Positions 3,975 through 28,394 of a stretch of 64,000 nucleotides of DNA are shown here, piece after piece (positions within the stretch are counted from its first letter, which is position 1; every line of letters starts with the position of its first letter). The translations under genes and the position numbers were made by a program. The notes beneath the pieces were generated by a model. It was given only the letters and a program-made list of their open reading frames with translations, was not told the DNA's origin and ran no database searches. Where the stretch lies: NCBI GenBank assembly GCA_025055755.1, contig JANWWF010000002.1, positions 199,628 to 263,627 on the forward strand, read 5' to 3'. The DNA is from Candidatus Kapaibacterium sp. (GTDB lineage: Bacteria > Bacteroidota > Ignavibacteria > Kapaibacteriales > NICIL-2).

Positions 3975-4555
3975 GTGTATGGAATCGAATCACTAGCAGG
4001 GGATGGAGCATCACGCCACCGGGATATTGCCCACAGACCAACACGGTTGGGAACGATTGTCCACCGTAATGTGCCCGCAACACGGGTTGGGACCGAAGGA
4101 AGCGCAATCGGAAGTTCGAGAGTATATAATGCCACATACACCGCTGAATCAGGGAGCCGAACGTCGAAACGCGCGTCGCTAAGCGTTAGCTTCGGGGCTT
4201 GGTCAGGGCCGAGTCTGCTTATCAATGCCAAAAAGGCTTGACGCTCTTCAGTGCGAGACCACAAAGCAAATTTATCACCAAAGCGGGCACCGGCTTCTGC
4301 CGATGGCTCATAGCGGTATTGTTGCTGGGATGAGTACCCTTGTGCCGTGTCAGCCAGACAGAGCATAAATGCTTCCGTGTTTTTTTGTGCGATAGCATTA
4401 AGGATATTCTGAACAACAATCAGTTCGCTGGTTGGTTGGTCAAACTGGAGTGAACCGCTACCCGGTGGTTCCGGCGTGCGTGTTGTAAATGCTTCGCATC
4501 CGCTTAAGGATAGGAAGCCGGCAAGAAGCATCCTCCATACCAACCTACTAAACAT
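3941..4555 (-). CDS. Hypothetical lipoprotein
   Basis: ORF with signal peptide + LSGC lipobox (start chosen at MFSRLVWRMLLAGFLSLSGC); overlaps recR stop by a few nt. Confidence 0.4.
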   Translation of the reverse strand: MFSRLVWRMLLAGFLSLSGCEAFTTRTPEPPGSGSLQFDQPTSELIVVQNILNAIAQKNTEAFMLCLADTAQGYSSQQQYRYEPSAEAGARFGDKFALWSRTEERQAFLALISRLGPDQAPKLTLSDARFDVRLPDSAVYVALYTLELPIALPSVPTRVAGTLRWTIVPNRVGLWAISRWRDAPSPASDSIPYTWSTLKALLVN

Positions 4556-5141
4556 TGCTTCGTCCCGCCAGTGCTCTTGAAAGTGTGGCTTCGTCTGCAA
4601 ATTCTAAGTCCATGCCTACGGGGACACCACGAGCAATCCGAGTTAGTCGTATGCCAAGCGGTGCGATAAGCTTAGCAAGGTAGTGCGTGGTTACTTCGCC
4701 CTCGACCGTTGGATTGAGCGCAAGAATGACTTCCACGAAGGTACCCCTTTGGAGGCGCTCCATCAAGGGTGCTATCTTGAGCTGTTCAGCTGTGATACCT
4801 TGCAACGGGTCCAGGGCTCCATGGAGAACATGATATAACCCGCGATATTCTCCTGTCCGTTCAATGGCGAAGACATCGCTTGGTTGCTCGACTACGCATA
4901 ATATATCGCGATCCCGATTCGGAGAGGTACACAGTGCGCAGGGATCTTGCTCGGTGAACGTGTAACACACAGAACAGTATTTGACACGCTCCTTGAGCTC
5001 TATCAATGCTTGAGCGAGAAGTTGCACCTGACTTTCCGGCTGCCGAAGCAGGTGAAACACTAAGCGTTGTGCCGATTTTCGTCCTATCGTTGGTAGCGAA
5101 CTAAGGGCTTCGATTGCACGCTCGATTGCAGGAGAATAGAC
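4548..5141 (-). CDS. recR: Recombination protein RecR
   Basis: MIVYSPAIERAIEALSSLPTIGRKSAQRLVFHLL..CSVCYTFTEQDPCALC (C4 zinc finger) followed by Toprim-like region; 197 aa. Upstream extension of the ORF to 5435 judged non-coding. Confidence 0.85.
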   Translation of the reverse strand, partial: VYSPAIERAIEALSSLPTIGRKSAQRLVFHLLRQPESQVQLLAQALIELKERVKYCSVCYTFTEQDPCALCTSPNRDRDILCVVEQPSDVFAIERTGEYRGLYHVLHGALDPLQGITAEQLKIAPLMERLQRGTFVEVILALNPTVEGEVTTHYLAKLIAPLGIRLTRIARGVPVGMDLEFADEATLSRALAGRSNV

Positions 5142-5264
5142 TATCATCGAGATACCGCAAAGTTTTGCTTGCGAAACTACAGTGAGCTTTGTTGGTGTTT
5201 GTGTCAATAAACGCCGCAAGTGGCGTTGTATTTTCGTGCCAACATTCTGCCCCCTGGATGTACT

Positions 5265-6551
5265 ATGAACGAGACAATTCAAATTAGTCCGCTGGCGACA
5301 CTTGAACGCGTCCGCAAAGTACGTCAAGAAAAAATTTACAAAGAGCTCCTCGATCGCGACACAATGGTGTTGTTTGAGGACCCGCTGGAAAATGACATGG
5401 TTCTCAATATGGGTCCTCAACATCCAGCGACGCATGGAGTGCTGCGCGTGCTTCTCCGGCTTGATGGCGAGACGGTTGTCAAGTGTGTGCCAGAGCTAGG
5501 TTACCTTCACCGCGGATATGAAAAGCTTGCCGAAAACTGTACCTATGTGGAGTTTATACCTCACACCGACCGGCTTGACTATTTAGCGCCAATGTCGAAC
5601 AATGTGGGAATTGCGTTGGCCATTGAAAATGCAATGGGGATTGAGGCACCGCCGCGGGCACAATGGATACGGACACTTGTCTGTGAACTTGCGCGGATTT
5701 CCTCGCATCTCCTTGCTACTGGCGCCACTGCAATGGATGTTGGGGCATTGACCGTCTTTTTGTGGACCTTTGCCGAGCGCGAAAAGCTCTACGACATTTT
5801 TGAGTTGATCTGCGGAGCACGGTTCACTACAAGTTACACCCGTATCGGGGGAGTGGCAAACGATATTCCTGACTGGGTACTCCGAAAGATACGTGACTGG
5901 GCCGATCAATTCATTGGGCAGCTGGAGGATGTCGAGAAGATCTTATCCCGCAACCGTATCTTCATTGATCGAATGGCAGGAGTTGGGTATTGCTCTGCAG
6001 AGAAAGCGATTGCGTTGGGGTTGACGGGCCCAGTTCTTCGCGCTTCGGGGGTCGAGCGAGACTTGCGACGCGATCAGCCGTATTTGCTCTATGACCAGTT
6101 GGAGTTCGATGTCATCGTCGAGCATGACTGCGATTGTTATGCACGGTTTATGGTGCGATTACGCGAGATGCGCGAGTCAATTCGCATGATTTATCAGCTC
6201 CTGGATAAGCCAGTACCCGGGGAGGTACGGCTCAACGACCCAATTCATGTTACTCCACGCAAATACGAGATTTACACGAAGATGGAGGAGCTCATTGCCG
6301 ATTTCATGATAATCAATTTTGGTCCACCTGCTCCGCCGGGAGAGACATACACGGCGATTGAGTCCCCCAAAGGAGAGCTTGGATTTTTCATCGTGGCAGA
6401 TGGTACTGGGTATCCGTGGAAATTGAAGATTCGCTCTCCTTCAGCTGCGAACTTGCAGGCAATGTCGCACATGGCGGAAGGTTCGATGGTCGCCGATATC
6501 GTGGCGATCATTGGAGGCATCGATCCAGTAATGGGCGAAGCAGATAAATGA
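5265..6551 (+). CDS. nuoD: NADH-quinone oxidoreductase subunit D (49-kDa subunit) homolog
   Basis: MVLNMGPQHPATHGVLRVLLRLDGETVVKCVPELGYLHRGYEKLAE... strongly conserved NuoD/Nqo4 motifs; no other nuo genes flank it. Confidence 0.8.
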   Translation: MNETIQISPLATLERVRKVRQEKIYKELLDRDTMVLFEDPLENDMVLNMGPQHPATHGVLRVLLRLDGETVVKCVPELGYLHRGYEKLAENCTYVEFIPHTDRLDYLAPMSNNVGIALAIENAMGIEAPPRAQWIRTLVCELARISSHLLATGATAMDVGALTVFLWTFAEREKLYDIFELICGARFTTSYTRIGGVANDIPDWVLRKIRDWADQFIGQLEDVEKILSRNRIFIDRMAGVGYCSAEKAIALGLTGPVLRASGVERDLRRDQPYLLYDQLEFDVIVEHDCDCYARFMVRLREMRESIRMIYQLLDKPVPGEVRLNDPIHVTPRKYEIYTKMEELIADFMIINFGPPAPPGETYTAIESPKGELGFFIVADGTGYPWKLKIRSPSAANLQAMSHMAEGSMVADIVAIIGGIDPVMGEADK

Positions 6552-7180
6552 TGCCTGCCATCTGTGGCGACAATGGCAAACAGCTGCAGTCCTATCCAGG
6601 CACACCCGAGCGCCAAGCGAAAATTCTCCGCATGCTCGAACGCCGACAGCCGACACTTACAATTATTCTGGAAAATGTGCATGATCCGCACAATGTATCG
6701 GCAGTGATTCGCTCATGCGATGCAGTGGGGGTGCTTGACGTCCATTTGGTGTACACAGGCGGACAGCAATTCCCTGAACTGGGGGAGCGATCCAGTGCCA
6801 GCGCGCGAAAATGGGTGCGCCTGGTGAAGCATCGAAGCATAAGTGAATGTTACGCGGCTCTTCGTGCAAAAGGGATGCAGATTATTTCAACCTGCTTAGG
6901 GCGCCCTGCGGTGAGTCTGTATGCATTAGACATGACACGGCCGGTAGCAATTGCCTTTGGTAACGAGCACAGTGGGTTGAGCGAAGAAGCATGCCAGGGG
7001 GCAGATGTTAACATGGTCATCCCTCAAATGGGTATGGTCCAGAGTCTCAACATATCGGTTGCATGCGCGGTTACCCTTTTCGAAGCTATGCGCCAACGTC
7101 TGCAGCAGGGTATGTATGATGTTCCTCAGCTAAGCCCTGCAGAACTCGATGCATTGCTGACATATTTTCTGGCCCTATGA
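6548..7180 (+). CDS. SpoU/TrmH-family RNA 2'-O-methyltransferase
   Basis: 210 aa; ILENVHDPHNVSAVIRSCDAVGV ... AFGNEHSGLS ... SLNISVACAV motifs of SpoU class MTases; start ATG overlaps nuoD stop (ATGA). Confidence 0.75.
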   Translation: MMPAICGDNGKQLQSYPGTPERQAKILRMLERRQPTLTIILENVHDPHNVSAVIRSCDAVGVLDVHLVYTGGQQFPELGERSSASARKWVRLVKHRSISECYAALRAKGMQIISTCLGRPAVSLYALDMTRPVAIAFGNEHSGLSEEACQGADVNMVIPQMGMVQSLNISVACAVTLFEAMRQRLQQGMYDVPQLSPAELDALLTYFLAL

Positions 7181-8169
7181 ATAGACAGTGGTCTGGAGGG
7201 GCTGCCGCTGAACGTGTCCTGTGGCAGGTGTTCATCGCAAGCATGTTGATTGCAATGGTGAGCGGAGCAGTGGTGGCTTTGCACTATCAACCCTCATTTC
7301 ATCCACTCCAGGGGAAGGTGTATGTGGCTACAACCCCAATCGTTGACGGAGTAGGCGATACCCTCCTTCGTTCCCAAGAGCTTGTCCTGCTCGATAGCAT
7401 TCCTCAGCATCACGGCACTTTGGTTCCTGTTGGTGATACACTGCTCAAATGGAATGAAGCCCTTTTGTCCCATGCCTCTATAGTGCGTGCTGAAGCAGGG
7501 GCAATACTGGTTGCAACTCACCAGGTGGCAACATCAGTGGTCATAAGTGCAATTCTACTGCTTGTGCTACTACACATTCTCTGGGGCTACCAGAAACGAC
7601 TTCCTGTAGGGCTACTGCTTGTCTTGCTTGTTCTACTTGAAACCACTTCCTGGCTGGGAACTGTACTTCCCGGAGATCAGCGTGCGTTTGATGCATATAG
7701 CATTGGGCGCTCACTTATTGTGGACAATCTGCCGATTGTGGGCGATGTTGTTGCCCCGCTTCTTCCAACGGATGCAAACGCAGCGCGCGTATTTGCTCTC
7801 CACGCGCTGTGGCTCCCAGCAGTAGTTGGTGGGCTAATCTACGGCCTTAGCACTTTGTGGCAACGTCCTATTGAGCATGGAATAATGGCGGCCACAGCGG
7901 TAGGCATCTGTGGAATAGGAATCTGGAGTGGGCTTAGTACCCCCCCTGTCCTGGTGCACACGACAAGCGCGCCAGTATGGCATCTTGCGGTACCCTATGC
8001 TCTGTTCCACGTTTTGCCAGCAGATGCAACGATGCTCATGTGTGTAGGATGGTGGTCCTTAGCTGTCATGTGTGGGGCAAGTAGAATACTGCTTGTCCGA
8101 GTCGTAGGTGCTTTGTTGGTAGCAATATGGCTTGTGGGGAGTGGTGTCATCAGTATTGCATGGCAATAG
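7177..8169 (+). CDS. Polytopic membrane protein with cytochrome b N-terminal-domain-like sequence (divergent)
   Basis: 330 aa, ~7 TM helices; segments VVALHYQPS, SWLGTVLPGDQRAF, NLPIVGDVVAPLL...RVFALHALWLP resemble cytochrome b helices A-D, but His spacing is not the canonical 13-14 residues; ATGA overlap with upstream gene. Confidence 0.4.
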   Translation: MNRQWSGGAAAERVLWQVFIASMLIAMVSGAVVALHYQPSFHPLQGKVYVATTPIVDGVGDTLLRSQELVLLDSIPQHHGTLVPVGDTLLKWNEALLSHASIVRAEAGAILVATHQVATSVVISAILLLVLLHILWGYQKRLPVGLLLVLLVLLETTSWLGTVLPGDQRAFDAYSIGRSLIVDNLPIVGDVVAPLLPTDANAARVFALHALWLPAVVGGLIYGLSTLWQRPIEHGIMAATAVGICGIGIWSGLSTPPVLVHTTSAPVWHLAVPYALFHVLPADATMLMCVGWWSLAVMCGASRILLVRVVGALLVAIWLVGSGVISIAWQ

Positions 8170-8180
8170 GAGGAAAGTGA

Positions 8181-10100
8181 ATGTGCGGGATTGTAGGGAT
8201 TGTTGAGTACGCTGCCCAGGAACCGAGCATCACAGAAGAATTGCTTGAGGGGATGAGTTCCCTGCTGGCGCACCGTGGTCCTGATGATGCAGGAGTGTGG
8301 GTATCGCCTTCCCGTCGCTGTGGGTTTGGTTTTCGGCGCCTTGCAATTATTGACCTCACCCCTGCAGGACATCAACCAATGAGTACTCCTGATGGGCGGT
8401 TTACCATTGTATTCAATGGGGAAATTTACAATCATGCCGAGATTCGGCAAGAGCTCGAGGCACTCGGCTACCGCTACCGTTCACGGACAGATACGGAGAC
8501 TATCCTTTACGGTTACCAGCAATGGGGGAAAGATATTTTCCATCGCATGCACGGAATGTGGGCAGTGGCGATTTGGGATGAACAAAGCCAGGAACTCATT
8601 TGCGCTCGTGATCGCATTGGCAAAAAGCCCTTGTACTGGTGGCATCGTGATGGTCGTTTCCTGTTTGCATCAGAGATCAAGGCACTTTTCCAGCATCCCG
8701 CTGTTGAACGAGAGGTTGAATGGGAAGAATTGCCGATTTACTTATGTTTCTCGATGACTAGTCATCGCCGAACGCTCTTCCGCGATGTTTTTAAGCTCCC
8801 GGCTGCGCATCTTCTCCATGTAGATAAACGGGGGAATGTAACGTGCGAACGATACTGGTCTCCGCGCTACCGTCCAGAGTTACAACGCATATCAGTTGCC
8901 GATGCACAAACTGAAATTCTCCGTCTCCTGCGCCAGTCTGTAGCGGACCGCATGATGAGTGATGTGCCGTTTGGAGTTTTTCTCAGCGGTGGGCTTGATT
9001 CGAGCATCAATGTAGCTCTTATGGCTGAGCTAATGGATCGTCCTGTGGAGACCTTCACTGTAGGTTTCCGCGACTTGGATAGGTACAACGAGCATGAGTA
9101 CGCACGCCAGGTCAGCAAACTCTTCGGCACCAATCATCACGAAATACTCATCACTGATCAAGATGCCCTGCCACTTCTGGAAGAAATGGTCTGGCATGAG
9201 GACGAGCCGAATGGGGATCCGGTCTGCATTCCGTTGTATTTCCTGGCTCAGTTAACGCGCTCATCGGGCACGACAGTGATACAAGTCGGTGAGGGCAGTG
9301 ATGAGCAGTTTATTGGCTATCCCTGGATGGTGCGGGAATGGAGATTTGCACAAACAGGGTGGCGCTATTACCACTGGCTTCCCCAAGCACTGCGACAAGC
9401 GCTGTATATTATTGCGAAGCCATTTTTTCAGCAACGGGGCGCCTATCGCGCACTTGATTACATCCGGCGTGCCGCCGCGGGCGATCCGCTCTATTGGGGC
9501 GGTGCAGTTGACATTGTGCCAGTGTATCAGGAACTGTTGTTTACGCGGCGGTGGGCTGATGCCCCAACACAAACAAGGAGCTATGCGCGCTGGCTCAATG
9601 AGAGTGCTGCCTCGGTGATTCCGCATCCTTCGACGCTGCAACAGATGATGTGGCTGGAGTTCCAGCATCGGTTACCCGAGCTTCTTCTCATGCGTGTTGA
9701 CAAAATCACAATGGCGCACTCCATTGAGGCACGAGTTCCGTTTTTAGACTATCGGCTTGTTGAATTTACGCTGAACTTGCCCGATCAGGTGCGGATGCCG
9801 GATGGCAAAACTCCTAAGCTCTTGCTCAAAAAGACAGCAGAACGCATTTTACCCAAGCAAATCATCTACCGTAAAAAGCAGGGTTTTGCCGCACCTGTAG
9901 ATGAATGGATGCGGACGGTATGGTACGATTACGCAAAGCGTGTTATTCTCGATTCCTACTTTGTCCGAAGCGGAGTGTTTAGTCGTTTCGCTGTGCAGCA
10001 TCTTTTTTACCTGCACAAGCAGCAGCGCCAGCGACTGGGCAAAAGTCTGTATGCATTATTGAATCTTGCTTTGTGGCACCGACGGTTTTTTAATGGTTGA
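8181..10100 (+). CDS. asnB: Asparagine synthase (glutamine-hydrolysing)
   Basis: MCGIVGIV N-terminal Cys nucleophile, SGGLDSS PP-loop motif, 639 aa; GGAGG RBS upstream. Confidence 0.85.
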   Translation: MCGIVGIVEYAAQEPSITEELLEGMSSLLAHRGPDDAGVWVSPSRRCGFGFRRLAIIDLTPAGHQPMSTPDGRFTIVFNGEIYNHAEIRQELEALGYRYRSRTDTETILYGYQQWGKDIFHRMHGMWAVAIWDEQSQELICARDRIGKKPLYWWHRDGRFLFASEIKALFQHPAVEREVEWEELPIYLCFSMTSHRRTLFRDVFKLPAAHLLHVDKRGNVTCERYWSPRYRPELQRISVADAQTEILRLLRQSVADRMMSDVPFGVFLSGGLDSSINVALMAELMDRPVETFTVGFRDLDRYNEHEYARQVSKLFGTNHHEILITDQDALPLLEEMVWHEDEPNGDPVCIPLYFLAQLTRSSGTTVIQVGEGSDEQFIGYPWMVREWRFAQTGWRYYHWLPQALRQALYIIAKPFFQQRGAYRALDYIRRAAAGDPLYWGGAVDIVPVYQELLFTRRWADAPTQTRSYARWLNESAASVIPHPSTLQQMMWLEFQHRLPELLLMRVDKITMAHSIEARVPFLDYRLVEFTLNLPDQVRMPDGKTPKLLLKKTAERILPKQIIYRKKQGFAAPVDEWMRTVWYDYAKRVILDSYFVRSGVFSRFAVQHLFYLHKQQRQRLGKSLYALLNLALWHRRFFNG

Positions 10101-11929
10101 ACATAGCGCGAACTACCATGTACACAATTGAGCAGCGGGATGAGCAGCTACTCGGCACGCAAGCGAAAATTCGCTACCATTGCTTTTTTGATCGGGCGGC
10201 AGAGCATCTTCTCCGCGTGCGGATGGAGATAGACCTTGATGGAGGGGAAGACGACGTGCGATGTACCCTGCCTGCCTGGGCACCGGGAAGCTATAAAATT
10301 CGTGACTTTATTACGCATGTAGGGAATCTCCACGTGTATAACGACAGTGGGATGCTTCTCCCAGTTGAATGGATAGCCAAAAGTACATTTTGTTTCTATC
10401 CGCGTGGGGCGAAGATGGCTGCAGTGGAGTATGTCTTCTATGCAAATGAGCGTACTGTGCGGACAATGCACATTACGCGGTGGCGTGCCTTCCTTTTCCC
10501 TGTCAATTGTTTCTTCTACGTTGAAGGGCGGCAGCAGGAAGTCCACCACGTTATCCTTCACTTCGATCGCAGTCGTTGGCAGTCTCTGACGACTGCTCTG
10601 TCTCCTGTGACTGCGCTAAATGAGTCAGGAGGCCCCGTCATTCTTGGTGCACTCAACTACGATATTCTTGCTGACTCACCAACAGAGATTGGCAATCACC
10701 TTGTGCGATCATTCACTGCATGGGGCGCACGCCACGAGGTAGCTCTTGTTGCACCATATGCATTCGATATTGACTGGCTTGCAGAGCAGTGCCGGATTAT
10801 AGTTGAGACGGAGGCTGCAGTCTTTGGAGGGGTGCCATATGATCGCTATGTGTTTTTCGTGTATGCAGGGACAAACATAAGCGGCGGTTTAGAGCATGCT
10901 CGTTGTTCTGTGAATATGTGCGATGTGCAGGCACTGCATGATCCACAGAAGGCGAAATCCCTTCTTGCGCTCCTGTGTCATGAGTACTTCCATGTGTGGA
11001 ACATCAAACGCATTCGTCCACGGGAGTATGGACCATTTGACTACACAAAAGAAGTGCATTCACCGATGTTATGGCTTGCTGAAGGGTTCACGTCGTATTA
11101 TGATGACCTATTCGCATATCGCGCAGGTTTCTACACGCGAGAGGAGTATCTTGACTTGCTTGCACGTGACCATATAGGCAAGTTGCTCCAGGTACCAGGA
11201 CGCCGTGCAATGAGTGTGCGCCAATCCAGTTATTTAGCATGGGTGAAGCTTTATGCTCAGTCGCCAGATGGACAGAACCGATTTCCGTCATACTATCTCA
11301 AGGGGGGCGTTGTAGCTCTTCTTCTCGACTTAGCGATTATCGAAAGCACCGAAGGGCGCCGCCGCCTTGATGATGTGATGCGCGTGCTTTGGCAGCATTA
11401 TTGCCAGCGCCCAGAGATTGGTCTTACCGAGGAGGAAGTGCTTCAGGCAATTGAAGAGGTTTCGACAGCTGAAGTTCGGAAGAAGTTTTGGCAATGGATC
11501 GACAGCACTGACGAGCTTGACATCGCTTCTGCATTTGCACCGTTTGGCATTGATTGGCTAGAGCAACCGAAAGATACTCCGCAGGCTGGCAACACAACGC
11601 CTTACCTTGGGCTTCAGTTAAGGACAGAGGGAGGGCGACTCATAGTGAGTAGTGTTATGGAAGGATCCCCAGCTTCGAAGGCAGGCATTGCAGTGGATGA
11701 TGAATTGATAGCAGTCAATGGCAAACGTATCACTACTGAAGAAGAACTCCTTCGGGCATTTTCCTGGGGGGACAAGGTAACTGAAATCACCGCAAGCTGC
11801 GACGATCAATTGTACACGACAACGATTGAGTACATGCCAGCTATGGACTATCAATTGCGTGTGCGGCCAGTCTTAGGTGAGCGTCAACAAAAGCTCTTTC
11901 AGAGGTGGCTTGAACGCTCATTTGCATAA
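10097..11929 (+). CDS. M61-family glycyl aminopeptidase with C-terminal PDZ domain
   Basis: 610 aa; HEYFHVWN (HExxH) zinc motif in M61 context, C-terminal GLQL...GSPASKAGI..DDELIAVNG PDZ-like segment; ATGA overlap with asnB. Confidence 0.65.
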   Translation: MNIARTTMYTIEQRDEQLLGTQAKIRYHCFFDRAAEHLLRVRMEIDLDGGEDDVRCTLPAWAPGSYKIRDFITHVGNLHVYNDSGMLLPVEWIAKSTFCFYPRGAKMAAVEYVFYANERTVRTMHITRWRAFLFPVNCFFYVEGRQQEVHHVILHFDRSRWQSLTTALSPVTALNESGGPVILGALNYDILADSPTEIGNHLVRSFTAWGARHEVALVAPYAFDIDWLAEQCRIIVETEAAVFGGVPYDRYVFFVYAGTNISGGLEHARCSVNMCDVQALHDPQKAKSLLALLCHEYFHVWNIKRIRPREYGPFDYTKEVHSPMLWLAEGFTSYYDDLFAYRAGFYTREEYLDLLARDHIGKLLQVPGRRAMSVRQSSYLAWVKLYAQSPDGQNRFPSYYLKGGVVALLLDLAIIESTEGRRRLDDVMRVLWQHYCQRPEIGLTEEEVLQAIEEVSTAEVRKKFWQWIDSTDELDIASAFAPFGIDWLEQPKDTPQAGNTTPYLGLQLRTEGGRLIVSSVMEGSPASKAGIAVDDELIAVNGKRITTEEELLRAFSWGDKVTEITASCDDQLYTTTIEYMPAMDYQLRVRPVLGERQQKLFQRWLERSFA

Positions 11930-12002
11930 CCGATTGTAATTATCGCGCGGGAAGTGATATATTGCGATTAGCATGTGAAAACATTATTTCTGGAGTGCTA
12001 CC

Positions 12003-14039
12003 ATGATGCGAAGTCTGCGTGTGCTCAGCGTGGTTGTGTTTGTTCTCCCCTTTTGTGCATGGGCGACAACCAATGGTGAGCTACGGCTTATTCCACCACA
12101 GGAAAAACAGTTCTTTCGTGAAATCATTCATCCCTTACAACAGCATATTCCTCTGGTCCATCCGTTGGACAATACCGATGGAGTTGCATACAAAGTTTTT
12201 GATTCTCTTTTCAATGCATTCTCCTACTATGGCAGCAATCAAACGTGTGTGATGTGGGACCCTCAAACAAACGCATTCATTACTATTAAGCGGGGAGCGC
12301 TTGTCTCTCGTCCAGATAATCCCAGCCCAGATAAGAGCAACAACATTTTCATCGTGTGGACCACTGATAACGGTCAGTCATGGCAGCGTGTCGGTCCAGT
12401 TGTGGTGGGGAATCCCAGTGATGGATACCCACGCTATCCCGCGATAGCCTTAATTCGTTCTGATGTTAGTATTAACACATTGGATAATTCAATTTTCAAT
12501 TTCTATTGCCCACTCACCGATGGTAGCAGTTGGGCTGGAATGGTTGCGGGGTACCATATCAATGCACCAGGATCTGCACCGACAACAGTTGTGCTAAGGA
12601 ACCACATTGATCAGTCAACAGGCTATCGCTATACATTTGGCACAACATATTCAACTGCGTCGATTACTCGAGATGCCGAAAATGCTTTTGGTTTCGCTCT
12701 CAGCGGCTTAAGTGTCTCAGATGCCTCCGCGCCATATAGGGAAAACAATAATAATGCGATCATCAAAACAGATCTAAGCGCCACCGCTGTTGAAGTTTTC
12801 ACCTCGGAAATTCCCCCGCCCTTGCGAGCGGAGAATTTTGTTGACCCTCAGCAAGCAAATAGCCGGACAAACACGGAAGTTGCCTTCGACTTAGATTCCG
12901 AGGACAATCTCTATGCAGGTGTATTTGGATTATTTGCAGCGGCTGAAAATACTTCTCTTTTGACATTTGGTGTGACAAAATCCTCGGATAACGGGAAAAC
13001 ATGGAGTGATTGGAATATCCTTCCAACCTCAATCATTGAGGCATATGTGGCGGCAAACGGAGGCGATCCCACACAGTCAGGTTTCCGTTTCTCATGGGGC
13101 TGGTTGGGAGATGCCTCTGGCAACACTCGAGTGACTTCTGCAAAAGACTTCGTGGTTACTGGAAAAGATGAGTATAGTTTTGCTGCCCAGTTGGTTCTTA
13201 TTAGCGGACAATCTATCGTAGGGGTCCATTACGTTGAGGTGTACTACGAAAGAGGGCAATGGGGAATCCGCAAGATTGCTGATGCATCGCTGTTTGAAAC
13301 CAGTGAGCAAATGCGGTTCAACAATGGAGATAACTATGGCCCATCACAACTGGGATGTGAGTTACAGCTTGCACGAACGGCGGACTACAACGTGCTTTTG
13401 TTTAAAACATTAGAGGCTCGCTTTATAGTGTGGGGAGGAGATACGCTGTTGACGACAGATGTTGTTGTTAGCGTCCGGCCGAAAAATGGGAGCACATGGG
13501 AGCCACTTCGAAACGTGACGAGGAGTCGTATACTCGATCGTATTACCTGGATTCCTAAAGTCATCCCCTCGACAGCAGAGAATATTCCACTGCTTACAGT
13601 TCAATCTGCTTATCGCGGTTCTTCAGATCGCGAATATTACTGGGATAATCAATTTCTCCTGGCCGCGGCTTCTCAAGATCCAAGCCCAGAAGAGATTCTC
13701 CGCTATCGCCAGTATGTGACGTATTCGACATTCAACTACGAAGACCTACCGGAATGGAACCCTGCAACCTCGGTAGAAAAGCAGAGCAACAACGCTGCAG
13801 ACATAATGCTTCTCCCTAATCCTGCCAGCAACGATGTGACTTTTTACCGTTCGATTGCTTCGATGGATGCAACAATTGAAATTGTCAATTCGCTTGGCCA
13901 AGTGGTGTATCGCGCTGTTATCCCAGCAGGCGTATCCTACCATACATTCGATGTAACAGCAATGGCGCCTGGTGTCTATCATTGCCGCCTGCTGTATGGA
14001 CCCACGGTTAAAGTAGAACCGCTAAGTATTGTGCGTTAG
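12003..14039 (+). CDS. Secreted BNR/Asp-box repeat protein with T9SS C-terminal sorting domain (CTD)
   Basis: Signal peptide; Asp-box motifs TTDNGQSW, SSDNGKTW; C-terminus LLPNPASNDVTF...IEIVNSLGQVVYRAV...GVYHCRL matches Por_Secre_tail pattern. Confidence 0.7.
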   Translation: MMRSLRVLSVVVFVLPFCAWATTNGELRLIPPQEKQFFREIIHPLQQHIPLVHPLDNTDGVAYKVFDSLFNAFSYYGSNQTCVMWDPQTNAFITIKRGALVSRPDNPSPDKSNNIFIVWTTDNGQSWQRVGPVVVGNPSDGYPRYPAIALIRSDVSINTLDNSIFNFYCPLTDGSSWAGMVAGYHINAPGSAPTTVVLRNHIDQSTGYRYTFGTTYSTASITRDAENAFGFALSGLSVSDASAPYRENNNNAIIKTDLSATAVEVFTSEIPPPLRAENFVDPQQANSRTNTEVAFDLDSEDNLYAGVFGLFAAAENTSLLTFGVTKSSDNGKTWSDWNILPTSIIEAYVAANGGDPTQSGFRFSWGWLGDASGNTRVTSAKDFVVTGKDEYSFAAQLVLISGQSIVGVHYVEVYYERGQWGIRKIADASLFETSEQMRFNNGDNYGPSQLGCELQLARTADYNVLLFKTLEARFIVWGGDTLLTTDVVVSVRPKNGSTWEPLRNVTRSRILDRITWIPKVIPSTAENIPLLTVQSAYRGSSDREYYWDNQFLLAAASQDPSPEEILRYRQYVTYSTFNYEDLPEWNPATSVEKQSNNAADIMLLPNPASNDVTFYRSIASMDATIEIVNSLGQVVYRAVIPAGVSYHTFDVTAMAPGVYHCRLLYGPTVKVEPLSIVR

Positions 14040-14072
14040 AAATCAGCTTGTATCACTACCGAAAGAGATACA

Positions 14073-17000
14073 ATGAAAGTGCTTTCCATAGTGGTTGGAA
14101 TTGCTCTTGTCTTGAGTGCTGCATGGGCAGGAACTAATGGTAATCTTACAGGAACGGTAAAGGATAAAGACGGTAAACCAATTCAGGGCGCCACAATTCG
14201 TGTCATGGGGACCGTTCGTGGCGCTAAGGCTAAGAGTAATGGTGAATACCTCATCATCAACATACCAGCGGGGACCTACACGATCAAAGTCACAGCGGTC
14301 GGCTACAAAGAAAAGAATGTCGAGGCAACAATCCGTGCGGATCAAACAACTACCTTAAACATAGTTCTCGAGAGTGCTGAAGTCATGGGGAAAGAGGTAG
14401 TTGTTGAGTCTGCACGGCTCAAAATGGTGGACGACAAAGCAGTGGGAATAACAAGAGAGGTCTCTGGTGAACAAATACAACGCACCACTCGTGAAACTGC
14501 TCAACAAATAGCCCTCACGCAGGCGGGTGTGCTTGCAGCAGGCGGCGGTTTAGCAATCCGCGGAAGCCGTCCTTCGGACACACAAATCCGTATTGATGGA
14601 CAAGACGTTTCCGACCAAATTTCGGGGGGATTTGGTGTTGCCGCAGCAAAAGCAGGGATCGCATATGCTCCTACTGCCTCTGCGTTTGCAACAGAAGAGG
14701 TGCAGGTGCTCACGGGTAACTTCAGTGCTCAATATGGTAACGCGATGGGAGGAGTGGTCAATCAGGTAGTGAAAACTGGAAAAATTGATCGATATGAGGG
14801 ATTTCTCCGATGGAGAAGTGATGTCCCGTTTTTATTTGGGAAAGCAGGCAATGGTGTCCAAGCACTTGCTCCTTTGCAAAACACTTACGAGTTTGGAGTA
14901 GGAGGACCTATACCACTCTTAGATCGGTCGACGTTCTTTCTCACTACTCGTTATGTGACTGAGAAGTATCGGAGTTTTGGGCTTGATGTTCGTGATCGCG
15001 CCGGGAATTCAATAGGACAACTGCCAGATAATACATCTTCTATTCGCAACATCACAGGGCGCTTGGCATTCCAGTTTACCGATGACATCAAGCTAATCCT
15101 GGGAGGAACGTGGGGGCTCACGTCCTTGGCAATGGGGAACTGGGCCTGGTTGTATGCAAGAACTCCGGCGATGCTGTTACAGCCCAATCCAAACACTGGA
15201 CTAAATGACACACTCCTACTTTCCACTGTACCAGAAAATGTCGCAAAGGTTAATGCAGTCAACAATTTCATATACAGCTACTTTGCAAGAATCAACCATA
15301 TTCTCACCGAAACCAGCTTTTATGAGCTGACAGTGTCGTTCAACAATAATGTTGCGGAAGATGGGCGTCGTCGTATAGAGTTAGGGGAAGGATCGCTTCT
15401 TCGGAATGGTCAGCCTCTTGACCCATCGAAGGTCTCAACAGTAATGCCAAAAGATAACTTTTTCACAGGGTGGGATATTCTCAAACCAGTTGATGATTAT
15501 GTTCTGGATCGGACAAGCGGTCAGCAGGTACGTAAGACTGGTCCCCAGGGTGATAAGATCGTTGATTTCTACGCGGAAACGTATGGGAATGTGTATTTAG
15601 ACAATGACCCACGCCGCCCATTTTACACAACTGTCCCTAGTAACTTGACCGGATACGTTGAAGGTTCATCTGATGCTCTAAGCACACGGAATCCATATGG
15701 ACTACTGGGTATGTTTTATGCACGAGGTAACGATGAGGGAAGTAGTGGTACTCGAGGCTTTGAATTTACGAGTGCCAATTTCTGGCAAATTGATGGGAAC
15801 TATCAACTCAACCTTTTTGCGGGAGAGGTTCGTCACCTTCTGAAGGCGGGCATTGATGCTCGATTTTACACTGTTCGGCGTTATTACAACAGTCTTCCGT
15901 GGCTTGGCAATCCCTTTTACGATGTGTTTACTGACCAATGGGGCGGCGATATCTACAGCTTGACTCCTGAGGAACGGGCAGAGGGAAGCAAGCCAAAGCA
16001 TGCTGTTATCAGCGCTTTATACGTTGAAGATCAAATCTCCTACAAGGGAATCAATATCAATCCCGGGATGCGGATTGATGTGTTCAACCCCAGTACGACC
16101 TACCGTACCAATCCTGCCGATGCAGCATCACCGGACCGCAAGACTGCATCCATCAAAGTGCAGTTAAATCCGCGCATCTACATTTCTTACCCGATTGGTG
16201 AACGTTCATTTTTCTCAATCGCGTACGGGTGGTACACACAAATACCACGTTTTGAGTTGGTGTACAATAACACAGTCTCTGCTCTAACGCGGGGTAATAA
16301 CATCGTTGGTAATCCTGATCTCCGTCCAGAGAATGCCAAGCAGTATAACGTAGCATACAATGTTCAGCTCTCCGACGACTATGCGTTGGACGTCCAGGCA
16401 TTTTACAAGGACATTTATGGCTTGACAGGATTGGCATACGTACCCGATAATCGCTTCCCGTATGCGATAACATCGAATGGTGAATATGGTAATGCCCGTG
16501 GAATTGAAGTGACCTTCCGCAAGCGTCTGAGTGGGAATTTTGGTTTCAATGTGAACTATACTCTCTCCTTTGCACAAGGGACATCCTCGTCCTCTGGAGC
16601 AAACTATAATGTCATCATCAGCGGCGCTGATCCATATACCGGCAATCGTCTCTTTCCTCTTACTGAATATCCGCTTGATTATGATCGCCGCCATCGTTTC
16701 AACTACATTATTGATTTTGTCTGGGGTAAGGGGGAAGGCCCCTCGATTGGGGGAATTCATTTCTTAGAAAATGTTACGCTGAACTTTACAGGACTGTTCC
16801 AGACTGGGACTCCGTACACGAAACTCGATTTGCGCGGCAATCAGGTGGGGGACTTTAATGCAGAGCGTCGTCCGTCGGTCTGGACAATGGATATGCGCCT
16901 GCAGCGGGCAATACCACTTCGTGATCTCTTCGGCGAATCAATGGGGAATTCTGAACTCATTTTGTTCCTGGATGTCCTAAACTTACCCAATTTGACAGGT

Positions 17001-17315
17001 CCGATAAATGTTTATCCTCGTACAAGTGACCCAGATAATGATGGGGTAAGCCTGTATCGTCAAATTGGTGATTTCCCTCGCGGTCCATGGTATGCACGTC
17101 CCGATCCAACGAATCCGTCGACCATTGCGCAAAGTCAATATGACCGTGCTGGCAATCGCTTCTACACAAAAGAAGCAGATTTCAACAATGATGGTATTGT
17201 GACCCAGGAAGAACAATATCAATCATATATGCAATATGTGCGTGACGCAATGGCACGACGTCCGAATTATCAATTCCCGCGGCAAGTGTATTTCGGCGTC
17301 ATGCTTCGTTTTTAG
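14073..17315 (+). CDS. TonB-dependent outer-membrane receptor with N-terminal carboxypeptidase-regulatory-like domain
   Basis: 1080 aa; signal peptide, GTVKDKDGKPIQGATIRV...YTIKVTAVGYK CarbopepD_reg-like start, C-terminal beta-barrel ending in aromatic residue (MLRF). Confidence 0.65.
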   Translation: MKVLSIVVGIALVLSAAWAGTNGNLTGTVKDKDGKPIQGATIRVMGTVRGAKAKSNGEYLIINIPAGTYTIKVTAVGYKEKNVEATIRADQTTTLNIVLESAEVMGKEVVVESARLKMVDDKAVGITREVSGEQIQRTTRETAQQIALTQAGVLAAGGGLAIRGSRPSDTQIRIDGQDVSDQISGGFGVAAAKAGIAYAPTASAFATEEVQVLTGNFSAQYGNAMGGVVNQVVKTGKIDRYEGFLRWRSDVPFLFGKAGNGVQALAPLQNTYEFGVGGPIPLLDRSTFFLTTRYVTEKYRSFGLDVRDRAGNSIGQLPDNTSSIRNITGRLAFQFTDDIKLILGGTWGLTSLAMGNWAWLYARTPAMLLQPNPNTGLNDTLLLSTVPENVAKVNAVNNFIYSYFARINHILTETSFYELTVSFNNNVAEDGRRRIELGEGSLLRNGQPLDPSKVSTVMPKDNFFTGWDILKPVDDYVLDRTSGQQVRKTGPQGDKIVDFYAETYGNVYLDNDPRRPFYTTVPSNLTGYVEGSSDALSTRNPYGLLGMFYARGNDEGSSGTRGFEFTSANFWQIDGNYQLNLFAGEVRHLLKAGIDARFYTVRRYYNSLPWLGNPFYDVFTDQWGGDIYSLTPEERAEGSKPKHAVISALYVEDQISYKGININPGMRIDVFNPSTTYRTNPADAASPDRKTASIKVQLNPRIYISYPIGERSFFSIAYGWYTQIPRFELVYNNTVSALTRGNNIVGNPDLRPENAKQYNVAYNVQLSDDYALDVQAFYKDIYGLTGLAYVPDNRFPYAITSNGEYGNARGIEVTFRKRLSGNFGFNVNYTLSFAQGTSSSSGANYNVIISGADPYTGNRLFPLTEYPLDYDRRHRFNYIIDFVWGKGEGPSIGGIHFLENVTLNFTGLFQTGTPYTKLDLRGNQVGDFNAERRPSVWTMDMRLQRAIPLRDLFGESMGNSELILFLDVLNLPNLTGPINVYPRTSDPDNDGVSLYRQIGDFPRGPWYARPDPTNPSTIAQSQYDRAGNRFYTKEADFNNDGIVTQEEQYQSYMQYVRDAMARRPNYQFPRQVYFGVMLRF

Positions 17316-17351
17316 CGGGTTCATTATTGTAATGAATGTCCAACAAAATTT

Positions 17352-20300
17352 GTGATGGAGCCAATGAAAATGCATGCTTATGTAGTGAGCGCTATCCTAT
17401 TGCTGTTTGGCATATCCTCATGGGCACGCGACATAGATCGAGCGAAGTATGGCAAAAAACTTGTACAGCCTCAAGCAGCGCAGTTCAATGACCTACGGCA
17501 AAACACCGTTAGCCGGGTACGATTTATGATCACCAATTATGGTATTTTTGGTCTCGACGTAGCACGCAATCAGGGGGGAGGATTTTGGCCACGTGGCTCA
17601 ACAAATGAGTACATTTTTGGTGGGGGGATATGGTTCGGAGCAATCAAGACGAAGGATGGGTTACCTCGGAAGATGAGTGTAATCTCCTATAATCCAAACT
17701 CAGGTGCCTCATGGATGACACCGGGATCGATTGATGATGGGGACGAAGCAGATCGATCGCCAGAAGCAGTGTTGAAAAACCGTGTGTACCTTAGTACGGA
17801 TTTTGTTCGCGCAAATGGTCTGCCACGTAATCCTGCGGATGGCCCTAACTGGCCAATCTGGGATAGCAATCCCAATGACACGTTAGCAAATCGTTCCGTT
17901 ATCAAGGATAGAACGCGTTACCTCGGCTTCTACATTAATGATGTAGATAAACGAAATATTGCGACCTTCCCTAAGGGTCCAGCGTTTATTTCGCAGGAGG
18001 ATATCTTCACCGTTTATAAGGACACTGACCTTCGAGTGTATGAGATCGGGGAAGATGCTGCAAAGGCGGAGGGATATCCGCTCCGCATCCAGGTAGAGCA
18101 AACTGTGTACACATGGGGATTTGGTGAATACGCAAACTTCTACTTTATTCGTTACAACATTATCAACCGTTCGACAGATACACTCTATGAGTGCTGGATG
18201 GCTCCAGCATTTGATTTCGACTTAGCGGCAGCACCCAATTTTGCAGCTGGTGCGGGTAATGATCGCGTAAGCTACTATTTCCAGGATACCACACTCAACT
18301 TGGCATACCAATGGACCAATACTGATCGGGGAGAGCGAGGACGCCGCTTTGGGTATGTTGGTATGACATTTCTAGAAAGCCCTGCAGTCGATGAAAATGG
18401 CTTTATTCGTCGCGATAAACTCTATTATCCTCTCAGCGAGCAACTGGGATTGCGGACATTCCGAAACTGGGTTATTGACATTGACCCGAAGACTACAATT
18501 GAGCGATATGACTTTATGGCGTCGGGGGCGCGAGATGGGGATACTGGGCCGGGGGATAAACGCTTCCTCATGGCCACAGGACCATTCAATATGCGGCCAG
18601 GGGATACGGCTCGTGTGGTTGTAGGGACGATTTTTGCCCTTCCTGTAAAGGAAGAAGCAGATGGGACGGTAGAGGATTTAGTGAATCTTGTGCGTCGGAC
18701 TCAGTTTGCCCAAAGAGTGTATGATAATGGCTTTGCAGCTCCTGAACCTCCTGAACCCCCAAGAGTAACTACCCAACCGCTCAACCACGCGATTATTGTC
18801 AGCTGGGACACTACAAGCTACGCCTCTTACGACCGCGAGGAAAAGGGAATGGATATCATGGGATTCCGCATCTTCCGTTCGCGTGTTCCCACCCAGGATA
18901 CTTTTGACGTTGACTTTCGCTCACCAAGTGCTGAATATCCTGGCGGCCGTGGACCGTTCGGGTGGAAGCAAATAGCTGAGTGGATAACGCCATCGCCCTT
19001 CGTAATGACTGCAATTATGTCGGATAGCTCGAACATGTTAAGTGCGCGTTATCCATGGATACGCATCTTTCCTCGCGCATCCAAATCCAGCTATCGAACC
19101 TTGTATCCAGGATTTCTTAGCTCATCGGATGTGACAAATGACAGTGTTATTTTGATTCGGCGTCTTCCGAATACCACCAGCGAACCATGGAGAAGTTTTT
19201 GGCAGCCTCTTGTGCCTCAGCAGACGTATTCGAATCCGATACGGTATGATACGCTGACGCTCGGTATCATTCGTATTTTGCCGGGGGGAACACTTCCTCC
19301 ACTTCCTACTACTACCACCGATACAGCCACTATGAACCGTGCGATGCTGGTTCTCTGGCCTCAGATTACCTCAGGATTAGCACGCCTTCAATGGTTCCAA
19401 GATGACTGGGTTGATCTTCCATGGGCACGAGCGATAATCCGTAACTACCTCGATAGCGTTACAAACAATCGCACCTTCCTCGATTTGGGAGATGATAATG
19501 GAGATGGTGTTATCAATCGTGATGAAGATCTCCGTCGCCGTGAGGAAATTTTGAATAACGTCGAGTATTACTACAAAGTTGTTGCCTTGGACGAAGGGGA
19601 CTATGTCCAAGCCACGCCTATCAAAACCAGTATCTCTGTTGATTTACTCAATGTTGTTCAAGGGTTTGCTTTAGCGCCGGGACCATATCGGCAGCCTTCT
19701 ATTGAAACCACCTATGATCCAAATCAGCTCGGTGGACTTTATAACTTTCGTCTTATTCCCAAAGACCCCGATCGTTTTGCTCAATTGTTTGGGGGGCATG
19801 AAATTGAGCTCGAGTTTCAACCTTCGGTATCTGGATTCAGCGGATACAATTGCCTCGATACACTGTGGAATAACAATGCCACCTTTTACAAGGGCATTTA
19901 TGGCAATGAATTGATTGTGCGGGACAAGACAACGGGGAAGGAGCTTAACCGATACAATGTCCTCTATGAACCTGCCGATTGCTTGTTTGATAACTTTTAC
20001 TCGGATGTTGCAATGCTCTATGTATCGCCGCAGACGGGGCAATACCTATCGTTCTGTGAGGACATGCTACGGGGAGCAAATGATACCACGCTGTTTGTGC
20101 ATCCGTTTAATACCAGCGTTACTGCCCGTGGTGGATCGTGGACCACAGATAAGCCTTGCTTGGGAGGTGATCGCACGATTGCGGGGACTTTCGGAATAGC
20201 ATTTGACTACTACATTCAGCAGTTTGGAGGGATTTTCCGTCCCTACCGTATCGCGAAACTCAGTGGTAATGCGAACACCTTTTTAGAATTTCGTCCGCGT

Positions 20301-21455: not shown

Positions 21456-21457
21456 TA

Positions 21458-22561
21458 TTGCAACTACGGAGAATTAAAGCTATGCAAGTAGTATTTGTGA
21501 TTACTGTTGTTTATTCGCTTTTGAGTGTTTGCAGCAGTGTCATTGCTCAGCCTCCACAAGCGCAAGGCTCGTCGGCAGGAGAGTTCCGTAAGGTTGGTGC
21601 TGCTGGAGCCCAATTTTTGAAGATCGGTGTTGGGGCACGCGCCAACGGCATGGCTGGAGCATTTACTGCTATCGCGAATGACCCCTCGGCCCTCTTTTAC
21701 AACAATGCTGGCATTGTAGATATCAAAGGTTATATGGGCTCGTTCTCCTACATTCAGTGGTTTGGCGGCTATTCCCACAATTTTATCGCAGGGATTGTGC
21801 CGATGGGAGAGAATTACCGTGCTGCTTTATCTGTCACTTCGTTTACAAGCGGTCCTATACCGTTTGCCACTATTCAAGATGAAAACCGACTCAATACGAC
21901 GTATAGCATCACAGACGTAGCAATCGGTGGGACCTTTGCTGCCCAGCTTACTGACCAGTTTTCGTTTGGTGTAACTCTAAAGTACATCCAGAACGGCATT
22001 GGGGGCATGAGTGCCAGCGGAATTCTAGCAGATGTTGGCACTATGTACCGTTTTCGAGGAGTGCGATTAGGATTTTCCATTAGCAATTTAGGTCCGCCTC
22101 TCCAATTTTCGGGGGGAGATTTGAACTTCCGCACCGACTTGCTACGCGAGCTCCAATATCAACAAATAGATGCCTCCTACTTGGTGAATCCATTCAATGC
22201 ACCAATTTCGTTGAAGGCAGGATTAGCAGCAGACTTGACGACGGAACTATTGGGATTGTATGATTCCGATCCGAATCTTGCGATTAACCAATCACGAGAG
22301 CATCGGTGGCTTATGGCCCTTGAATTTGAAACACTTTCCGATGTCCCAGAACAGCTTGCAATAGGAACAGAGTATACCTGGAATGATTTGCTATCCATTC
22401 GAGCAGGCTATCGCTATAACCAAAGCGTGTTTGGCTTTAGTGGTGGTATAGGGATTCGCTACATAGGCAGCGGCTTCGAGGGTATGCTTGATTACTCAAT
22501 TCATCCCAGCTCAACCCTTGGCATAGTTAATCGTTTTTCCTTGACAGTTCGTCTTGATTGA
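21458..22561 (+). CDS. porV: PorV/LptO-like T9SS outer-membrane beta-barrel (FadL/OmpP1-like)
   Basis: 367 aa; signal peptide then GAAGAQFLKIGVGARANGMAGAFTAIANDPSALFYNNAGI, matching the conserved PorV N-terminal motif. Confidence 0.65.
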   Translation: MQLRRIKAMQVVFVITVVYSLLSVCSSVIAQPPQAQGSSAGEFRKVGAAGAQFLKIGVGARANGMAGAFTAIANDPSALFYNNAGIVDIKGYMGSFSYIQWFGGYSHNFIAGIVPMGENYRAALSVTSFTSGPIPFATIQDENRLNTTYSITDVAIGGTFAAQLTDQFSFGVTLKYIQNGIGGMSASGILADVGTMYRFRGVRLGFSISNLGPPLQFSGGDLNFRTDLLRELQYQQIDASYLVNPFNAPISLKAGLAADLTTELLGLYDSDPNLAINQSREHRWLMALEFETLSDVPEQLAIGTEYTWNDLLSIRAGYRYNQSVFGFSGGIGIRYIGSGFEGMLDYSIHPSSTLGIVNRFSLTVRLD

Positions 22562-22586
22562 TCCACTGTGTCGCACCTTGATTGTT

Positions 22587-22640
22587 CGAGTTCTCTTTGA
22601 TGTAGAACTCACAGCGCAGAGCAAAGCTTTTTTCCCCTTA
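22587..22640 (+). terminator. Possible intrinsic terminator after porV (gagttct/agaactc hairpin, downstream T-run)
   Basis: 7-bp stem 22588-22594/22604-22610, T6 at 22628-22633; spacing is loose. Confidence 0.3.
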
Positions 22641-22651
22641 ATGTAAGTGCC

Positions 22652-28390: not shown

Positions 28391-28394
28391 ATGC

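Follow-up and report, generated by a model that had tools for sequence, protein, structure and literature searches.

A lone nuoD beside a compact run of unrelated genes in a hot-spring Kapabacterium, very probably belonging to a dispersed complex I

Dispersed complex I genes and an isolated nuoD

In cyanobacteria the ndh genes are scattered, with ndhH standing apart from the others, and the nuo genes of Aquifex are scattered as well. Complex I family genes occupy many loci there, with single genes amid unrelated ones, a likeness to the locus described here that holds across different lineages. Within the same class-level lineage as our locus, a dispersed 14-subunit nuo set has been reported both in Kapabacteria ('Ca. 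Thermonerobacter thiotrophicus', PMC6338057) and in Ignavibacteria (PMC3362086; Ch128a, PMC7509429), where nuoD is likewise separate from the other nuo genes. In Ignavibacterium album the 14-gene set is split into three clusters (PMC3362086), and both this species (PMC3362086) and the published Kapabacteria metagenome-assembled genomes (MAGs; PMC6338057) carry a separate 11-gene nuo operon besides the dispersed set. The papers on the dispersed set are silent on which genes adjoin nuoD, and the supplements of PMC6338057 hold no nuo gene identifiers; for the pairing of nuoD with trmH and for the local five-gene string, the present analysis is the only documentation.

We analyzed a 64-kb stretch of DNA (hereafter the window) that matches hot-spring MAGs of Kapabacteria/Chlorobiota, and whose source organism is a hot-spring Kapabacterium (Bacteroidota/Chlorobiota). 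An initial annotation had described its nuoD (5265-6551, + strand, 428 aa), encoding the 49-kDa/Nqo4 quinone-binding subunit of respiratory complex I, as standing alone, with no nuoB/C upstream or nuoE/H downstream, and this holds across the 64 kb, in which nuoD is the only nuo gene. No nuoB-N genes were found elsewhere in the window by tblastn with E. coli NuoB-N queries, no nuoE, nuoJ or nuoK by tblastn with Kapabacteria seeds, no further nuo genes by Pfam among the other window ORFs of at least 150 aa, and no second nuoD by tblastn. The nuoB/C or nuoE/H flanks of the canonical E. coli nuoA-N and T. thermophilus nqo1-14 operons are thus absent at this locus, where the opposite-strand recR (4548-5147, - strand; RecR Pfam domains were recorded in sister assemblies) lies divergently upstream, forming the left boundary of the string as outside context, and trmH lies downstream.

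The same isolation is seen in related species. A genome scan with peptide patterns specific to the window NuoD yielded a sample of the best 80 loci, all orthologues, and across 80 other species of the class (NuoD 68-96% identical to ours) we found no gene for NuoA, B, C, H, I, L, M or N within 10 kb of nuoD. A protein search with NuoD likewise gave only orthologues among its best 120 matches (all at least 69% identical), with paralogous nuoD genes lying outside the reach of both searches. The nuoD (L042) of the closed Kapabacteria genome Ch6, which is reported to be probably conspecific with the published Kapabacteria MAGs (PMC7509429), encodes a protein 72% identical to the window NuoD and is also isolated. 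In related species, nuoJ and nuoK additionally occur as a pair by themselves at three loci, and at three loci a nuoE-like gene is present at a distance from nuoD. Matches to nuoE and nuoF at one further locus (L065) were considered as evidence of the 14-subunit type and rejected: the 'NuoE' ORF there is 280 aa, the NuoF-like frame is over-long, and the two may belong to a hydrogenase-type cluster.

An isolated nuoD is the usual, already published Kapabacteria layout. Of the two explanations offered initially, a scattered nuo system is already known and agrees with nuoD standing alone in every one of the 80 related species and with the split set of I. album (PMC3362086), while there is no sign of a repurposed NuoD. 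The remaining nuo genes of the window's own genome would, judging from related genomes and the literature, be present at other loci. A lone nuoD in Kapabacteria or Ignavibacteria-like genomes is accordingly best read as a member of a dispersed complex I and not as an orphan or neofunctionalised paralogue, a point of small importance beyond annotation.

The NuoD protein and the four genes that follow it

The strong NuoD motifs noted at the outset are matched by profile scores. NuoD lies above the cut-offs of both TIGR01962 (511.0 bits, cut-off 459.35) and NF004739 (499.2 bits, cut-off 360) and matches Pfam Complex1_49kDa at E=8.8e-107, whereas it falls under the cut-off in the NdhH, FpoD and FrhA models; in comparison with cyanobacterial NdhH, it fits the NuoD model better (511 bits vs. 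374 for the NdhH model, whose cut-off is 583). The His/Tyr quinone head-group ligands, H224 and Y273 in E. coli NuoCD and H38 and Y87 in T. thermophilus, are matched in the alignment with E. coli by H57 (within GPQHPATHG, the His belonging to the beta1-beta2 loop) and Y106 (within RLDYL). The CxxC motif, a NiFe-binding mark of hydrogenase large subunits, is absent from all 428 residues. Among solved structures, NDUFS2 of mitochondria (E=1e-118) is closest, followed by Nqo4 of T. thermophilus (E=2e-104), with a Pyrococcus MBS-type chain (6u8y_L, E=1e-66) far behind these complex I 49-kDa subunits. The D part of E. coli NuoCD is 36% identical to the window protein and shares its Q-site His and Tyr, but in E. 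coli the C and D parts are fused, whereas the window NuoD is not fused to NuoC; compared with Nqo4, its N-terminal extension is about 20 residues longer (the match begins at query residue 44 vs. chain residue 25). Judged by its sequence, the window nuoD is a genuine complex I gene of the NuoD/Nqo4 type.

ORFs and domains confirm that five genes follow one another on the + strand in the order first given. The nuoD/trmH junction reads ATGATG, with an ATGA overlap at 6548-6551, and the SpoU/TrmH-like gene (6548-7180, + strand) encodes a SpoU-class RNA 2'-O-methyltransferase of 210 aa, or of 209 aa from ATG 6551. A second ATGA overlap, at 7177-7180, leads into the cytochrome b-like gene (7177-8169, + strand, 330 aa), a divergent cytochrome b homologue, and asnB (8181-10100, + strand, 639 aa) follows after an 11-nt spacer with a Shine-Dalgarno-like GGAGG (8169-8173, + strand), read from the sequence 7 nt before the asnB ATG. 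These three junctions are as originally described. The fourth had been reported as another ATGA overlap, wrongly: the M61+PDZ gene (10118-11929, + strand, 603 aa) starts at ATG 10118, 17 nt past the asnB stop, leaving stop/start overlap at two of the four junctions. Complete translational coupling was thus overstated because this last junction has no overlap, although the two overlaps and the 11-nt spacer are tight. The sole overlapping start for the M61 gene, TTG 10097 (TTGA), was rejected since a 2-nt indel in the asnB/M61 spacer of four same-species sister assemblies (GCA_033581215.1, GCA_033578815.1, GCA_026416635.1 and GCA_025062405.1; 99.0-99.6% nt identity) puts it out of the M61 frame, and gene callers place the start at the ATG (window 10118) in these four assemblies.

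By its spacing, the five-gene string would form one transcript; the genes are probably co-transcribed simply because the genome is about 90% coding and neighbours are packed end to end. A scan of positions 4400-14200 returned promoter-like and terminator-like sites at chance level (15 vs. 10.6 expected, and 13 vs. 9.2, respectively).

NuoD's neighbours would share no function with it. The TrmH-like protein matches Pfam SpoU_methylase (117 bits, E=7.8e-34) and the TrmH model NF008295 at 200.6 bits, below the 227 cut-off, with T. thermophilus tRNA Gm18 methyltransferase (1v2x, E=8e-49) as the closest solved structure; the 6548-7180 product is a putative tRNA Gm18-type methyltransferase. AsnB, of the glutamine-hydrolysing asparagine synthase family, scores 487.8 bits against TIGR01536 (cut-off 267.1), matches Pfam GATase_7 and Asn_synthase, begins with MCGI and so has the Cys2 nucleophile, and stays below cut-off in specialised models (PEP-CTERM amidotransferase, lasso cyclase). 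The last product is an M61 metallopeptidase with a C-terminal PDZ domain (Pfam Peptidase_M61_N 110 bits, Peptidase_M61 133 bits, PDZ_6 42 bits), whose translation contains HEYFH, an HExxH zinc motif, and whose closest solved structure is 4fgm (E=1e-67).

Gene order in relatives and readings of the locus

Across related species the gene order is only weakly conserved. Of 69 informative species, 30-31 have trmH after nuoD on the same strand and 4 have it convergently on the opposite strand; a cytochrome b-like gene comes after these in 7-9 of 62, asnB is a same-strand downstream gene in 5 of 43, and recR lies upstream in only 3 of 75. Contiguous five-gene order recurs only at two loci (L005 and L006), from other species that are close relatives. 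Conservation of the operon, which the initial annotation had proposed to check, therefore extends to nuoD-trmH in about half of the species and, for the complete order, to the two close relatives. That annotation had itself allowed that the other nuo genes might simply be split among several loci and the order not kept elsewhere; what we find is largely this, with nuo split over several loci and the five-gene order confined to close relatives. The persistence of nuoD-trmH in about half of the class-level sample while other neighbours change may reflect a degree of selection for linkage, for example through a common promoter or because the overlap locks the two genes together.

Within the window, 17 of 35 same-strand neighbour pairs are at most 20 nt apart or overlap, and tight pairs outside the string join unrelated genes (e.g., dnaN-ROK kinase-uvrA-ETF). 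The tightness of the five-gene string is no more than the background of the source genome, and tight overlaps in so compact a genome are no evidence of shared function. With nuoD packed beside unrelated housekeeping genes, the arrangement is an ordinary one, contrary to the initial description of it as not standard, given that isolated nuoD is usual in Kapabacteria and tight unrelated neighbours are common in the window.

We consider it highly likely that this is a normal NuoD of a dispersed complex I, lying beside a compact run of unrelated housekeeping genes. It would form the normal quinone-binding 49-kDa subunit of a proton-pumping complex I, whose structural genes, in Kapabacteria as in adjoining Ignavibacteria-like lineages, are spread round the chromosome, and would assemble with NuoB, NuoC and other subunits encoded elsewhere in the genome; nuoD would have come to head a compact run of a Gm18-type methyltransferase, a lineage-specific cytochrome b relic, an asparagine synthase and an M61-PDZ peptidase. 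A compatible variant, in which this is the sole nuoD of the genome with no second nuoABCDHIJKLMN operon, would fit the lack of a second nuoD in the 64-kb window, the absence from our data of any paralogue in this genome, and the variable gene content among Kapabacteria. We regard it as rather unlikely, since both nuo sets are present in published Kapabacteria MAGs and in I. album and our searches (NuoD-specific patterns, best 80 loci; best 120 proteins) are blind to paralogues. That NuoD has instead left complex I for a new quinone-reactive module with the cytochrome b-like membrane protein is very unlikely, even though both proteins come from quinone-handling families and the nuoD-trmH-cytochrome b-like string is kept in one Kapabacteria subclade (L001-L006, L009-L015, L090). 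NuoD scores above the equivalog cut-offs (511 bits for TIGR01962) and retains the His and Tyr of its Q site, and its sequence is strongly constrained (68-96% identity) in many species whose nuoD has no cytochrome b-like gene in its vicinity. In complex I the quinone site is formed at the interface of NuoD and NuoB with cluster N2, and the string contains no NuoB-like gene to supply that interface. The cytochrome b-like gene, moreover, is separated from nuoD by a tRNA methyltransferase gene and occurs without nuoD in other loci, either after trmH (L086) or without trmH as well (L087/L088).

A functional operon, with all five genes serving one process such as respiratory-chain biogenesis or quality control with the M61-PDZ peptidase, seems to us no less improbable than a repurposed NuoD. 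The two 4-nt overlaps and the 11-nt spacer would suit it, but spacing just as tight is seen between unrelated genes all along the window, the complete order is found only in the two close relatives, and in four species nuoD and trmH converge. Two minus-strand genes break the string between the cytochrome b-like gene and asnB in three loci (L010, L012 and L013). An M61-family gene does lie near nuoD-trmH in two different subclades, but in the other subclade it is an opposite-strand paralogue of 22-24% identity. An assembly or binning artefact joining a nuoD fragment to foreign genes deserves almost no weight: the source genomes are MAGs, but the five-gene order is identical in the four independent same-species assemblies (contigs 79 kb to 1.1 Mb) and is the same in the two other species, and G+C runs smoothly through the region.

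The cytochrome b-like protein

Of the genes at this locus, only the cytochrome b-like one is mildly out of the ordinary. An AlphaFold model of its product, based on 6 sequences, reached a mean pLDDT of 63.7, too low for a fold search, so we compared a sequence profile of the family with the PDB instead. This profile matches bc1 cytochrome b chains (E=3.7e-28), with homology spanning helix A, helices B-D and the PEWY region, and its C-terminal part matches b6f subunit IV (E=1e-5); the window protein itself scores 34.7 bits against Pfam Cytochrom_B_N_2. In canonical cytochrome b, four His residues, 14 apart in helices B and D, ligate hemes bL and bH. The only invariant His residues of the family, H115 and H209, align with the first His of each pair, i.e., the heme bL ligands, whereas the bH ligands are absent: Leu and Gly occupy the +14 positions in the window protein, and the family has no His there.

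The window protein thus shares a homologous helical core and the bL ligand pair with bc1/b6f cytochrome b, but differs from it in lacking the bH ligands, the PEWY motif (here PVWH, with PEWY, the quinol-oxidation motif, kept in distant members and in most of the family) and any Rieske homologue in the window; a search of all loci gave no Rieske partner either, and a Rieske gene overlaps the cytochrome b-like gene in one distant member only (L089). The loop between helices A and B carries a beta-rich insert of about 60 residues. It is conceivable, though in our judgement quite unlikely, that this is an undescribed single-heme quinol-reactive membrane protein, either a still working remnant of a Rieske/cytochrome b complex that has been lost or an accessory of the dispersed complex I; its linkage to nuoD would then have a functional, not a historical, basis. 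Tiny and fast-evolving, the family numbers no more than 17 clusters (50% identity) in a set of 1.84 billion proteins, and a cytochrome b-like family with the bL pair only may interest studies of Rieske/cytochrome b evolution in lineages with alternative complex III.

Identity and isolation of nuoD

The plus strand at 5265-11929 carries five ORFs that Pfam and NCBIfam assign, in the order initially proposed, to nuoD (5265-6551; TIGR01962, 511 bits, cut-off 459), a TrmH-like SpoU-class methyltransferase (trmH, 6548-7180; NF008295, 200.6 bits, slightly under the 227 cut-off, with the Thermus Gm18 methyltransferase as top solved relative, E=8e-49), a 330-aa cytochrome b-like membrane protein (7177-8169; weak Cytochrom_B_N_2 match), the glutamine-hydrolysing asparagine synthase asnB (8181-10100; TIGR01536, 488 bits, cut-off 267) and an M61 peptidase with a PDZ domain (ATG 10118 to 11929), with recR lying 5' of nuoD on the opposite strand. 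This nuoD, placed within a compact run of unrelated genes, is an instance of the known dispersed complex I organization of its lineage, whose partner genes we infer from related genomes and the literature; the finding is an ordinary one, as this nuo layout has already been described for the lineage.

Searching the 64-kb window by tblastn with E. coli NuoB-N returned nuoD as the sole match, in line with the initial annotation, which had seen no nuoB/C upstream or nuoE/H downstream, and NuoE, NuoJ and NuoK queries from Kapabacteria relatives likewise found no match there. By Pfam, the remaining large ORFs of the window are ordinary housekeeping genes, among them pheT, rny, dnaG, dnaN, uvrA, a gatA-like gene, psd and ETF. 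We then queried the best 80 loci from other species (NuoD 68-96% identical, with flanks of up to 10 kb) using the E. coli Nuo proteins together with those of the window; in none of the 80 did NuoA, B, C, H, I, L, M or N lie close to nuoD, indicating that a lone nuoD is the rule across the clade. A nuoE-like gene lies several kb from nuoD in 3/80 loci. In three loci, nuoJ and nuoK also form an isolated pair, lying a few kb upstream of nuoD and on the other strand (L017, 4719-5562; L045, 2971-3816; L057, 7273-8101), surrounded by unrelated genes and with no nuoI or nuoL beside it, providing further evidence for dispersed nuo genes in the clade.

The isolation of nuoD across the 80 loci agrees with published dispersed nuo sets: the 14-gene set of I. 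album lies in three clusters (Liu et al., PMC3362086), and an Ignavibacteria genome has many separate ndh loci (Kadnikov et al., PMC7509429). Kadnikov et al. (PMC7509429) also report that Ch6, a closed Kapabacteria genome, is probably conspecific with Thiel's organism, 'Ca. Thermonerobacter thiotrophicus'; the Ch6 nuoD (locus L042; 72% identical to that of the window) is isolated as well. Of the two readings first offered for the lone gene, these data thus support a scattered nuo system.

Nothing suggests the other reading, a repurposed NuoD-like protein: the protein clears the cut-offs of two equivalog models and stays below those of the NdhH, FpoD and FrhA models, its H57 and Y106 are aligned with H224 and Y273 in the quinone site of E. 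coli NuoCD, and the CxxC motif is absent from the window NuoD. Among solved structures, the nearest are mitochondrial NDUFS2 (E=1e-118) and then Thermus Nqo4 (E=2e-104), with the Pyrococcus MBS-type chain 6u8y_L (E=1e-66) distant. The best protein matches listed are named NADH-quinone oxidoreductase subunit D from Candidatus Kapabacteria, and the nearest species representatives by NuoD are MAGs labelled Chlorobiota, Candidatus Kapaibacterium or Ignavibacteria.

Gene spacing and conservation of order

Two proposed ATGA overlaps can be read directly in the sequence, at the nuoD/trmH junction (AAATGATGCC; ATG 6548 overlapping TGA 6549-6551) and at the trmH/cytochrome b-like junction (7177-7180), as can the 11-nt spacer before asnB with its GGAGG (8169-8173). 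A second in-frame trmH ATG lies at 6551, and the choice between 6548 and 6551 varies by gene caller. The further overlap claimed between asnB and the M61 gene does not exist. The sole start overlapping the asnB stop is TTG 10097, which we ruled out because a 2-nt indel between the window strain (spacer 10101-10117) and four sister assemblies of the same species (L001-L004, 14837-14855; 99.0-99.6% identical to the window) puts it out of the M61 frame in the latter, so that the conserved start is ATG 10118, 17 nt past the asnB stop. Since 17/35 same-strand neighbor pairs in the window are equally close (≤20 nt apart or overlapping), at a coding density of ~90%, the spacing of the five genes is the genomic norm.

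Four NCBI MAG contigs, the longest of 1.1 Mb, carry the exact window NuoD sequence in an identical gene order. Across informative species, trmH directly follows nuoD on the same strand in 30-31/69 (at distances of -4 to ~430 nt) and on the opposite strand in 4/69, the cytochrome b-like gene comes next in 7-9/62, asnB is downstream on the same strand in 5/43, an orthologous M61 gene (53-71% identical) is on the same strand in 7/43, and recR is upstream in 3/75. Among relatives, the contiguous five-gene order is found only in L005 and L006 (NuoD 96% and 92% identical). In three other loci (L010, L012 and L013), two minus-strand genes separate asnB from the cytochrome b-like gene, ruling out a conserved single transcript. 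Genes upstream of nuoD vary almost everywhere among related loci.

A different Kapabacteria subclade has an M61-family gene just 3' of nuoD-trmH on the opposite strand (L034, L043, L051, L053, L059, L064, L067, L069, L078-L080 and L084); given this orientation and its 22-24% identity to the window M61, nuoD has an M61 gene nearby in two arrangements that are not orthologous. Several related loci have a spurious ORF directly 5' of nuoD (families F4/F104; peptide ...WASAEIGRQAGLRSPCSQGRVGSSPTSPT), probably a frame running through a structured RNA gene. In the window, the recR/nuoD spacer holds a GC-rich hairpin of 7 bp (AACGCCGCAAGTGGCGTT) and then a T-rich run (5210-5237, plus strand), 38 nt ahead of the nuoD ATG, which may be part of the nuoD leader because there is no plus-strand gene 5' to terminate.

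The cytochrome b-like family

The cytochrome b-like family is restricted to Kapabacteria and tiny, with 17 clusters at 50% identity among 1.84 billion proteins and 6 at 90% among 5.8 billion. Its 21-member profile matches bc1 cytochrome b (E=3.7e-28) over helix A, helices B-D and the PEWY region, its C-terminal part also matching b6f subunit IV. The only invariant His residues, H115 and H209, align with the first His in helices B and D of cytochrome b, the heme bL ligands, whereas the heme bH ligand positions, 14 residues on, are non-His. Between helices A and B lies a beta-rich insert of ~60 residues in which D57 is invariant and G60-D61 (Gly-Asp) nearly so; PEWY is retained by distant members, and the window protein has PVWH instead. 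The gene is nearly always 3' of trmH (L001-L006, L009-L015, L086, L090 and L091), in L086 with no nuoD upstream, and has neither neighbor in L087 and L088. In L089, a distant member, it overlaps a Rieske gene; none was found in the window. We infer that the protein is what remains of a Rieske/cytochrome b module and may have kept the ability to bind one heme.

Other features of the window

Downstream of the M61 gene, 12003-24085 encodes a series of proteins that are probably secreted or sited in the outer membrane: one of 678 aa that weakly matches Por_Secre_tail (T9SS), a 1080-aa TonB-receptor-like protein, a GWxTD-domain protein, and 1367-aa and 367-aa ORFs without Pfam match. A 547-aa Q/L/E-rich coiled-coil ORF (28344-29987; no Pfam match), flanked by pheT and zapA, explains the strong positive AT skew at 28-32 kb, and a tRNA-Asp(GTC) and tRNA-Ala(GGC) pair lies at 801-971 on the minus strand.
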